Notes under the pieces: model-generated
Told to the model about the DNA's origin: nothing
What the model saw: only the letters and a program-made list of their open reading frames with translations
The model's database searches: none
Translations under genes and position numbers: made by a program
Assembly: GCA_019056805.1 (NCBI GenBank)
Contig: DXJG01000009.1
Span: 90,001-122,000 of the forward strand
DNA: 32,000 nt
Direction: 5' to 3'
DNA from: Candidatus Baldrarchaeota archaeon
GTDB taxonomy: Archaea; Asgardarchaeota; Baldrarchaeia; Baldrarchaeales; DXJG01
Part shown: positions 21,712 through 23,754 of the stretch, in pieces
Numbering within the stretch: the stretch's first letter is position 1
Layout of the letters: each line of letters begins with the position of its first letter

Positions 21712-22350
21712 ATGCTTTTTGAAAGGATATTTGTATTTCCTTTTCCAGAAATTGAATTATTTAAAAGATCCTACTTACAAAGAACTGCTCTATTAAAATT
21801 GAATTCAGCCGCGAGATGTCTCAACGCTGCTTTTTATCTGTCTCATAATATTAGAAGAGATACCCAAGTTTTTCTCCTATTTAAATTGGAGGATCTTGGA
21901 CACCTCTGTATTAATTTTGTCGGTAAAGATTTGAAACGTTTTCAACCAGATGAACATAGCATTCTCGGATTGATAAGAAATTCAATCATTAAATTTAGAA
22001 AGTATGAAAGAATCCGTAGAGAAATAGAAAAGAAATTTCAAGCTTATCCAGGAGTATTTGTACTTAAAATTTCCTTTTCAGAACTATTAAGTAATTTAAT
22101 TGATGAAGATTATCAAATTCTTTATTCGTCTGCCAAGGGAACTGATGTAAGAAAAATAAAATTTACACAAAAACTAGCATTTATTACAGCCAACAAAAAT
22201 ACATTGAATGAAAAAGATTGGGAAATACTCCGTAAAAACGGAGTCGGTATCCATTTTGGTGATAAATTACCTAGAATAGATATTCAAGTTATCCTTCTTC
22301 ACAACGAACTTGACCGAGTAGAAACAAAATATCTATCCAATTCATTATGA
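21712..22350 (+). CDS. TrmY-like SPOUT protein with degenerate SAM-binding knot
   Basis: ARCLNAAFYLSHNIRRD, PDEHSI, YPGV and HNELDR are present. GRxD, GPP, GDHxG and SxGP motifs are absent. Confidence 0.75.
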   Translation: MLFERIFVFPFPEIELFKRSYLQRTALLKLNSAARCLNAAFYLSHNIRRDTQVFLLFKLEDLGHLCINFVGKDLKRFQPDEHSILGLIRNSIIKFRKYERIRREIEKKFQAYPGVFVLKISFSELLSNLIDEDYQILYSSAKGTDVRKIKFTQKLAFITANKNTLNEKDWEILRKNGVGIHFGDKLPRIDIQVILLHNELDRVETKYLSNSL

Positions 22351-22928
22351 ACTATAGCAATACAGTGACTCCCTAGCAGCGACCTAGGACCTACAGAAGC
22401 TTTTACAGCACCTAATCTTTCTAATAGTAACTCGTCAGAATCATTTAATCCTATGTGATCCCCTAAAACAAAAACATGAACGGACTTCGCAGAAAATGTC
22501 ATCTTTCTTATATCTTTTCCCCTTTCATGTAAATATATTAAATGATAACCTTTTTCCGCGAAAAATTCAACTAAATCTTGAAAAGATGTTCGACTGACAC
22601 TAATACCCGCTAAAACTTCTTCTTCGACACTACTTCTACAAGATTTCAAAGCTTCTCTTATCATCTTAGCTATAGATATTTCATCTGCTTCTAAACTTTC
22701 TACTTTTGAACCATCTACTCTAATTATTTTAGGAGGAGTAGGTGGCCCTAGCAGAACCGCATAAAAAACAGTGTCTTTTCTCGGTTCATCATGGTAAAGT
22801 AAGGCTCTACTTATGCAACGGCAAACTATATCCATACGCCCGCCAGTACTTGGTAGACCTTTCAAATGAAATTTATGATCTGTTCTAGCTTTATTGGCCT
22901 TCAATACAAATATTCTCTTACCTTGCAC
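22299..22928 (-). CDS. trmY: tRNA (pseudouridine54-N1)-methyltransferase TrmY
   Basis: LPSTGGRMDIVCRC, LLGPPTPPK, YLHERGKDI, FVLGDHIGL, SVGPRSLLGSHCIAIVHNELDR. Start placed at GTG 22928, just after the pyrF stop. Confidence 0.85.
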   Translation of the reverse strand: MQGKRIFVLKANKARTDHKFHLKGLPSTGGRMDIVCRCISRALLYHDEPRKDTVFYAVLLGPPTPPKIIRVDGSKVESLEADEISIAKMIREALKSCRSSVEEEVLAGISVSRTSFQDLVEFFAEKGYHLIYLHERGKDIRKMTFSAKSVHVFVLGDHIGLNDSDELLLERLGAVKASVGPRSLLGSHCIAIVHNELDRYFVSTRSSSL

Positions 22929-22929
22929 C

Positions 22930-23754
22930 CTATTTTTCTCCCAACGATCCGATAGCATAATTAATCATTTCCTTTATTTTCTTAGCAGTTTCAACCGGAT
23001 TTGGCGAATTTAAAATTGTCCTACCCACTATCGCATAATCAGTTCCAGATTTGAATGCTTCTTCAATCTTTCCTCCTTGGATACCAATTCCTGGAGAAAA
23101 TATAGGAACCTTTGTTCCAAGAATAGTCTTTACTTCTTTCACTATTTTTGGATATGTAGCCCCGACCACAACACCGTCTGCTTCCCATTTCAAAGCTTTT
23201 TCAGCAAATATAATATATTGAGCTACCTTTTTTCCTTCACTTGTTAAGACTAGTTGACCATATCCTTCTCGTGCAGCTAAATGACTCATATAAACCAGTA
23301 GTATAACACCCTTGTCCTGTTTTCTAGCCTCTTCAAAAACTTTATTGAGACCGTCTTCCCAGCCAACAAAAGGATTTGCTATAACCGCGTCAAATCCCGC
23401 ATTGAAAAAATGTCGTGCTATCCATTGATTTGTATGCCCAACATCATTTATTTTACAATCCGCTATCAGCGGAAGTCCGTATTTTTCCACTCTGTCCACT
23501 ATTTCCTGTAAATCATCAAAAAGCCCTAATGGAAGAACCAGTTGCATATTTATCTTTACAGCAGCAAGATGCTCCGCAACGCTTTCAAGAACTCTTAAAG
23601 ATTTTTTGAGAAGTTGCTCCTTCTTCTCTTTCCATAAACCTCTTTCCGATCGTGAAAATACTTCCGAGTAGTCTAGAGCCAAAATAAGACGACTTTTATG
23701 CCTATTAGTAGCTTTTTCCAGCTTTAAAGAAAATTTATTACTATTCAAGTACAT
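22930..23754 (-). CDS. pyrF: Orotidine 5'-phosphate decarboxylase
   Basis: LILALD, AVK, IADCKINDVGHT (DxKxxD), VVGATYP, SPGIGIQGG, IVGRTI. Confidence 0.95.
   Translation of the reverse strand: MYLNSNKFSLKLEKATNRHKSRLILALDYSEVFSRSERGLWKEKKEQLLKKSLRVLESVAEHLAAVKINMQLVLPLGLFDDLQEIVDRVEKYGLPLIADCKINDVGHTNQWIARHFFNAGFDAVIANPFVGWEDGLNKVFEEARKQDKGVILLVYMSHLAAREGYGQLVLTSEGKKVAQYIIFAEKALKWEADGVVVGATYPKIVKEVKTILGTKVPIFSPGIGIQGGKIEEAFKSGTDYAIVGRTILNSPNPVETAKKIKEMINYAIGSLGEK

Follow-up and report, generated by a model that had tools for sequence, protein, structure and literature searches.

Why does an archaeal genome hold two TrmY-family genes that converge and overlap at their 3' ends, neither of which carries the complete set of family motifs? 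The question is raised by a stretch of 32,000 nucleotides from a Candidatus Baldrarchaeota archaeon (positions 90,001 to 122,000 of contig DXJG01000009.1, assembly GCA_019056805.1), hereafter the window. Its plus-strand copy is called B and its minus-strand copy A (Table 1). An earlier interpretation made from the letters of the DNA, here called the sequence-only reading, had proposed a duplication that became an obligate heterodimeric SPOUT methyltransferase. Complementary loss of motifs under selection, the co-occurrence of A and B and a complex model with a SPOUT interface together make a catalytic/non-catalytic heterodimer, derived from a homodimeric SPOUT enzyme, the best-supported reading of the pair, and we lean slightly towards its being correct.

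Family membership and division of motifs

Both proteins exceed the PF04013 cut-off of 25.5 bits, A with 180.9 and B with 68.9 bits. Against the NCBIfam equivalog model for TrmY (NF002560, cut-off 183 bits) A passes with 205.5 bits and B fails with 99.9 bits. By these profile scores A is a TrmY member and B a member of the family, not of the equivalog. The two proteins share 25% identity.

A aligns to MJ1640 over residues 13-210 (E 1e-41). Compared with MJ1640, B keeps RCxxAAFYLSHNIRRD, FVGxxLKxxxPDE and PGV and has nothing at GRLD, GQPNPP, IGDHIG and SLSPLELHANH; A shows the reverse pattern. At the sites of the S-adenosylmethionine (SAM) knot and of GRxD, B reads TANKNT, HFGDKLP and -KLN, and in A the RNA-side motifs have eroded to LLYHDEPRKD, EADEIS and AGI. 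The alignment with MJ1640 thus bears out the sequence-only reading, which had reported the loss of GRxD and of the SAM-knot loops in the plus copy and an erosion of motifs in the minus copy. The knot loops LGDxxG and SxGPxxLxSH stand together with GRxD in one chain in A and not in B, and FLSHxxRRD, PDER(S/N), PGI and the C-terminal NxxxD, all near-invariant in full TrmYs, are kept by B and eroded in A. The B stretch at LGDHIG (TANKNT) is variable throughout the B clade, and the knot region of B is rich in insertions and deletions.

The same division is seen across 20 Asgard A proteins and 25 Asgard B proteins, which were set beside 60 full TrmYs (Table 2). Full TrmYs hold both residue sets (56-60/60); some of the sites had served to define that group, and at the sites outside the definition the counts are 56-59/60. 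The B profile shows conservation in the RNA-side motifs and at the C-terminal Asp only. In one Asgard family (f21) all motifs (GRLD, FFLSxDFRKD, PDERAI, GDQxG and SLGxxxYLxSQ) are united in a single gene, and searches with the Pfam model and with the B profile brought up no second TrmY copy there.

Table 1 Coordinates of the gene pair, its motifs and the adjoining gene (positions in the window)
Feature	Positions	Strand	Basis
B (plus copy), knot-degenerate TrmY paralogue, 212 aa; proposed non-catalytic RNA-side subunit	21712..22350	+	Open reading frame (ORF), PF04013 match
A (minus copy), TrmY with intact SAM knot and GRxD loop, 219 aa; proposed catalytic subunit	22299..22958	-	ORF, PF04013 match
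Antisense overlap of both 3' ends, 52 bp	22299..22350	both strands	ORF coordinates
B motif FYLSHNIRRD, residues 41-50	21832..21861	+	Residue conservation
B motif PDEHS (PDERS in most relatives), residues 79-83	21946..21960	+	Residue conservation
A motif GRMD, residues 40-43, catalytic-loop equivalent	22830..22841	-	Residue conservation
A motif LGDHIG, residues 165-170, first SAM-knot loop	22449..22466	-	Residue conservation
A motif SVGPRSLLGSH, residues 188-198, second SAM-knot loop	22365..22397	-	Residue conservation
Orotidine 5'-monophosphate (OMP) decarboxylase (pyrF-like) gene, directly upstream of A, overlapping the A start	22930..23754	-	ORF; PF00215 on the same neighbour in L131, L132 and L134

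Table 2 Occurrence of key residues in Asgard A and B proteins and in full TrmYs
Residue	A	B	Full TrmY
GRxD Arg	20/20	2/25	
GRxD Asp/Glu	20/20	0/25 (Asp)	
LGD Gly	20/20	3/25	
LGD Asp	15/20		
Knot Gly	19/20	6/25	
Knot Ser (A S197)	20/20	0/25	
FLSH Ser	at most 4/20 (0-4/20)	24/25	59-60/60
RRD first Arg	11/20	25/25	59-60/60
PDERS Pro		23/25	
PDERS Asp		21/25	
PDERS Arg	0/20	21/25	57/60
PDERS Ser	5/20	25/25	
PGI Gly	11/20	25/25	
C-terminal Asp of NxxxD	11/20	25/25	

Distribution, phylogeny and selection

The sequence-only reading had called for a survey of Asgard genomes for the pair and for dN/dS, the ratio of nonsynonymous to synonymous substitution rates, on the degenerate copy, and both speak for a maintained pair. 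When 65 Asgard genomes of at least 97% completeness were searched with profiles of A and B, 61 contained both genes, at separate loci; two genomes of one family had neither, one had B only and one held a single full gene. Among 41 relatives from 18 families searched with Pfam, most genomes with a match had two at separate loci, one spanning the whole PF04013 profile and the other beginning near profile position 32, and single genes occurred in incomplete genomes only. The B gene of one family (f5), missed by the Pfam model, was recovered by the B profile. A pattern search for B added 82 further loci, almost all of them Asgard. B-type loci occur in Atabeyarchaeia and in Hermod-, Hod-, Thor-, Sigyn-, Sif- and Loki-type metagenome-assembled genomes (MAGs), all belonging to Asgard (Promethearchaeota).

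Two MAGs with B-type genes carry other labels. One labelled Bathyarchaeota (L129, WJJB01000446.1) was placed in the phylum of the window itself and is probably mislabelled or misbinned. The other, labelled as the bacterium Candidatus Deferrimicrobium (L090/L139, DATKTP010000038.1), carries, besides an archaeal SRP54, A and B genes of Asgard type; it is probably misbinned.

In a FastTree phylogeny of 181 family members, which is based on short proteins, is unrooted and does not settle the order of events, all B-types formed one bipartition of 66 rows with a Shimodaira-Hasegawa-like support of 96. The nearest rows outside this clade are single-copy Asgard genes carrying every motif. The Asgard A-types form a group of their own (support 94) among the full-motif TrmYs. 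As judged from these groupings, A and B represent separate clades of old age. Their duplication is ancient and spans Asgard, and what is local is the adjacency of the two genes alone. A recent inverted duplication, considered as the source of the symmetric overlap, was rejected on the 25% identity and the different old clades.

Values of dN/dS, calculated according to Nei-Gojobori for five species pairs, some with dS near saturation, range from 0.08 to 0.18 for both A and B. Between the window genome (G000) and its congener G001 the ratio is 0.14 for B and 0.14 for A; B, with 59% identity between these two genomes vs 79% for A, is the faster-evolving protein in the genus. By these ratios both genes are under purifying selection, and the degenerate copy shows no decay in relatives.

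A further family (f14) was considered as a natural test of whether B decays when A is lost. Its genomes are 86-93% complete, and no clean test comes of them: after SRP54 one genus carries a B-like gene that is diverged but intact, and an A-type gene is present in another. The B-like gene (L135:1594-2148, L136:2917-3396) is shortened and strongly diverged, keeps FCLS, LRYLxPSxRS and PGI and has lost RRD as well as the C-terminal Asp; the genomes that contain it are about 89% complete and yielded no A-type gene.

Structure models and proposed mechanism

The AlphaFold model of B has a mean predicted local distance difference test (pLDDT) of 89.6; in the former knot region the values are 89-96. 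TrmY gives the best fold match (3AIA_A; template modelling (TM) scores 0.79/0.84, E 1e-17), followed by Nep1/Emg1 (TM ~0.6). On this model B is a well-folded pseudo-methyltransferase and not a decaying gene. The complex model, computed for the A+B pairing only, reached an ipSAE (interaction prediction score from aligned errors) of 0.92, vs 0.00 for the best of three controls. Of 80 solved complexes 58 came up to that mark, as did 2 of 110 mismatched pairs. Three A+B runs agreed in at least 94% of contacts, with a partner pLDDT of at least 83. The model places B on A through what would be the usual SPOUT interface. At the predicted interface YLSH 42-45, QPDEHS 78-83 and N198/D201/R202 of B lie against the knot loop 189-195 and S197/H198 of A, and residues 189-195 of A would touch N198/D201/R202 of B.

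These observations are consistent with the following mechanism. A and B would be the two halves of a split TrmY, a tRNA pseudouridine-54 N1-methyltransferase. A would supply the trefoil-knot loops that bind SAM and the GRxD loop. B, with a whole SPOUT fold from which the SAM residues are gone, would contribute FLSHxxRRD, the start of the PDERS helix, PGI and the C-terminal Asp, elements that would correspond to those of the Nep1 monomer which binds RNA without supplying SAM. The resulting SPOUT-type heterodimer would have one working composite site, formed by the SAM pocket of A and the RNA-side residues of B, and one dead site. It would methylate the pseudouridine-54 made by Pus10, and Pus10, the maker of the TrmY substrate, is encoded in the window genome. 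Physical heterodimerisation, the action in trans of the B residues and the m1-pseudouridine-54 product are what we infer from the data above. For the wider proposition that an obligate asymmetric SPOUT heterodimer with a single composite site exists across Asgard, and perhaps in certain Thermoproteota (Ignicoccus, for example), the chances appear about even. From Ignicoccus, m1s4-pseudouridine-54 and a TrmY candidate, Igni_0291, have been reported (PMC7337903).

The assignment of the motifs to one or the other subunit leans on Nep1. In the Nep1-RNA complex the non-SAM monomer makes most RNA contacts (Arg129, Arg132 and Arg136 of helix alpha-c', and Asp101); Arg88, in the R-P-D loop, sits in the SAM-side monomer and is held by Asp90 of the non-SAM monomer (PMC3064781). 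If GRxD is equivalent to the R-P-D loop, and FLSH and PDERS to the end of alpha-A and the start of alpha-c', the division between A and B would be exactly one of cis and trans residues. The first equivalence, of GRxD with the loop R88-P-D90, is our reading of the published structure (PMC3064781) at the level of the loop, not residue by residue; a HMMER search for a residue alignment of TrmY with Nep1 gave no match. Reviews and the ELAP-seq paper give no roles for TrmY residues.

Several points weigh against a catalytic/non-catalytic heterodimer. The equation of Nep1 with TrmY motifs at residue level is our own suggestion, for FLSH and PDERS as for GRxD. B lacks GRxD, and a contact like that between Asp90 and Arg88 of Nep1 would be missing. 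The B protein of the window has His where the Arg of PDERS is near-invariant, and A retains part of the presumed trans set, namely the Glu of PDE in 20/20 and R..D in about half of the A proteins. Single-copy members around the bacterial VC_A1059 are without PDER, which is accordingly not universally required in the family. The score of the complex model may only reflect likeness to the solved TrmY homodimers (3AIA, 2QMM, 2QWV), and, as a prediction for one pairing, it cannot rank AB over AA or BB. A joint loss of A and B would equally be expected for two separate steps of one pathway, and the genomes behind the co-occurrence counts are related and not independent samples.

A fusion of the two genes was also looked for. 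Among 1.84 billion proteins searched, the long matches were full TrmYs joined to DUF498, to DUF2007 or to inserts, and none was an A-B fusion. Such proteins of the global protein library are 325 aa long where full TrmY is joined to DUF498, and 277 and 369 aa where the partner is a DUF2007-like domain (P0011, P0056 and P0124).

Gene neighbourhood and a possible autonomous A

The main rival explanation holds that A is a self-sufficient homodimeric TrmY and B a non-catalytic SPOUT pseudoenzyme with a role of its own, as a homodimer or with another partner. Such a role may be the binding of the tRNA T-arm, assistance to Pus10 or an RNA scaffold as in Upa1-Upa2. We consider this explanation unlikely, though it is the most serious of the alternatives. 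It draws on the position of B, which lies directly downstream of SRP54 in 77 of 78 further Asgard loci and in many families directly precedes Pus10, the maker of pseudouridine-54, with overlapping or abutting stop and start codons. In most Asgard genomes B is not encoded near A, and an A-type gene lay within 3 kb of it in 0/78 loci. In addition, SPOUT dimers that are fully SAM-dead and only bind RNA are known (Upa1-Upa2; PMC13015370), and A lies above the curated TrmY equivalog cut-off.

The position of B, however, says little about its present partner, since it was inherited. The single full TrmY of family f21 also lies between SRP54 and Pus10, which identifies B as the positional descendant of the ancestral full TrmY and A as the extra copy. 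A local tail-to-tail duplication as the origin of the pair is contradicted by this descent of B from the SRP54/Pus10 locus and by the separate old clades of the two genes. In the f21 loci (L043:1-3533 and L042:1-3468) Pus10 is divergent from the full TrmY and SRP54 lies downstream of it; the usual order elsewhere is SRP54, B, Pus10, and the f21 order implies an inversion around the same three genes.

Further observations speak against an autonomous A. The near-invariant Ser of FLSH, Arg of PDERS, Gly of PGI and C-terminal Asp have been lost in A, which is difficult to reconcile with an enzyme working alone, and A and B are present or missing together. In the lineage of the window, moreover, B has left Pus10 and sits against A. 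SRP54 is followed there by Pus10 with nothing between them, and B adjoins A instead, a neighbourhood kept in G001 and in three metagenomic lineages. The distance from the end of SRP54 to the start of Pus10 on contig C6 of the window genome (L047:130-2241) is 3 bases, and the TrmY-like gene has been cleanly removed. By gene order, B left the SRP54(-Pus10) site for the side of A only in this lineage. A and B are the only two PF04013 genes in the 1.9-Mb window genome, and their adjacency by chance would have a probability of about 1 in 1000; the placement of B beside A is therefore the strongest local evidence that the two work together.

The antisense overlap

The sequence-only reading had described two convergent TrmY-family genes overlapping by 52 bp, with each stop codon antisense to the His codon of the partner's HNELDR motif and 10 codons past the gene's own HNELDR. 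The ORFs, both with PF04013 matches, and the codon coordinates agree with this description. The stop of A (22299-22301) falls on the antisense of the His codon of B (22300-22302), the stop of B (22348-22350) on that of the His codon of A (22347-22349), and the spacing from HNELDR to the stop is 10 codons in both genes. The two genes share the motif DNA ..T-CAY-AAY-GAR-YTN-GAY... The antisense phase is reciprocal and T-CAY read antisense in that phase always gives TGA, so that a gene ending on the His codon of its partner obliges the other to do likewise; the symmetric stops count as a single coincidence. The C-terminal tails '(R/L)S(S/N)SL' (LSNSL and RSSSL) are the antisense reading of the partner's HNELDR.

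The arrangement of B and A recurs in four further independent assemblies (G001, L132/L133 and L134), with an overlap of 49 bp in G001 and of 52 bp in the metagenomic contigs L132/L133 and L134. In a metagenomic relative (L131) A and B are near neighbours without overlap and with a 281-aa gene between them; their tails are unrelated, and '(R/L)S(S/N)SL' is absent. That ORF (L131:3881-4726) has no Pfam match and takes the place of the 52-bp overlap.

That the overlap itself couples or balances the expression of A and B, as the sequence-only reading had ventured, appears improbable. Five contigs preserve the overlap with its stop-in-His geometry at a B protein identity of only 53-60%, which would fit such a device. 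A conserved motif on both strands, however, leaves the DNA doubly constrained in any case, L131 holds the pair without the overlap, and nearly all Asgard genomes keep the two genes at different loci. Most likely the overlap is a by-product of tight packing and not a regulatory device. Of the earlier proposal of a heterodimer by subfunctionalisation, the heterodimer has gained from the phylum-wide complementary loss, the co-occurrence, the selection and the complex model; a local duplication has to be given up, and nothing speaks for the coupling by overlap.

The length of A given in Table 1 is counted from the first ATG. An alternative later start is the GTG at 22928, 10 codons in, where the sequence-only reading had put the end of the pair. 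The longest A ORF shares 29 bp (22930-22958) with the end of the upstream OMP decarboxylase gene, and a start at GTG 22928 would fall 2 bases past the stop of that gene. The starts picked by gene callers on related contigs give A proteins of 205-214 aa.

Catalytic status of B

That B still works as a methyltransferase, on another RNA and by way of an atypical SAM site, is quite improbable, slightly more so than a coupling by the overlap. B keeps the whole fold, modelled with confidence also in the C-terminal knot region (pLDDT 89-96), and its gene is under purifying selection. Against this, both knot loops are without a conserved residue in the B clade and have many insertions and deletions, GRxD is gone, and what the B profile conserves are the RNA-side motifs and the C-terminal Asp.

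That B is a decaying, functionless duplicate and the overlap a remnant could draw on its weak scores against the family models and its faster evolution than A in the genus, but this reading is contradicted by a frame intact in every lineage examined, residues invariant across the phylum, the dN/dS values and the presence of the gene in 64/66 near-complete genomes, and a pseudogene is ruled out by residue conservation, dN/dS and near-universal presence.

Significance and comparison with known systems

SPOUT methyltransferases are textbook symmetric homodimers. The only heterodimer of SPOUT paralogues found in the literature is Upa1-Upa2, which is catalytically dead on both sides, and no mention of TrmY together with Asgard archaea was found there. 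To our knowledge no RNA complex of TrmY has been solved. If confirmed, a natural dimer in which one site works and the other is dead would directly tell the cis-acting from the trans-acting residues of a knotted enzyme. It would be the first half-site SPOUT methyltransferase and a prokaryotic case of the catalytic-plus-pseudoenzyme design that is typical of eukaryotic RNA-modifying enzymes. The split would extend through a whole phylum in the archaeal group closest to eukaryotes, and its route, from duplication over complementary decay to an obligate heteromer, would be that of the eukaryotic Trm6-Trm61, METTL3-METTL14 and Tad2-Tad3. For annotation it matters that the B family is labelled 'TrmY' or missed by current models, by which automatic annotation over- or understates the pathway.

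The nearest known system is TrmY itself (COG1901/DUF358/PF04013; MJ1640, PDB 3AI9/3AIA; HVO_1989). A and B both belong to its family, and the model of B has the same fold. In contrast to the characterised TrmY, a homodimer of one protein with all motifs, the motifs are divided here and neither paralogue is complete. Nep1/Emg1 (3OIJ; PMC3064781) shares the pseudouridine-N1 chemistry and an active site made up of a SAM-giving and an RNA-binding monomer. It differs as a symmetric homodimer acting on rRNA, and its motifs are equated with those of TrmY by analogy and not by alignment.

The yeast Upa1-Upa2 complex (PMC8994135, PMC13015370) likewise consists of SPOUT paralogues, joined in the usual perpendicular-helix dimer and with distinct subunit roles. 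Both Upa subunits are SAM-dead and form a scaffold, and the pair arose recently by whole-genome duplication. In our case A keeps all knot motifs, so that an inability to bind SAM would not extend to both subunits; with the SAM site of A intact, the pair would be a half-active enzyme.

In the division of labour the pair resembles Trm61-Trm6, METTL3-METTL14 and Tad2-Tad3, in which one paralogue provides cofactor and catalysis and the other RNA binding (general knowledge and PMC1829167). These are eukaryotic Rossmann-fold or deaminase enzymes and neither knotted SPOUT proteins nor archaeal. As in pairs of the Trm61-Trm6 type, there are two paralogues, one of them without cofactor-binding residues, and across the 65 near-complete Asgard genomes A and B are kept or lost together.

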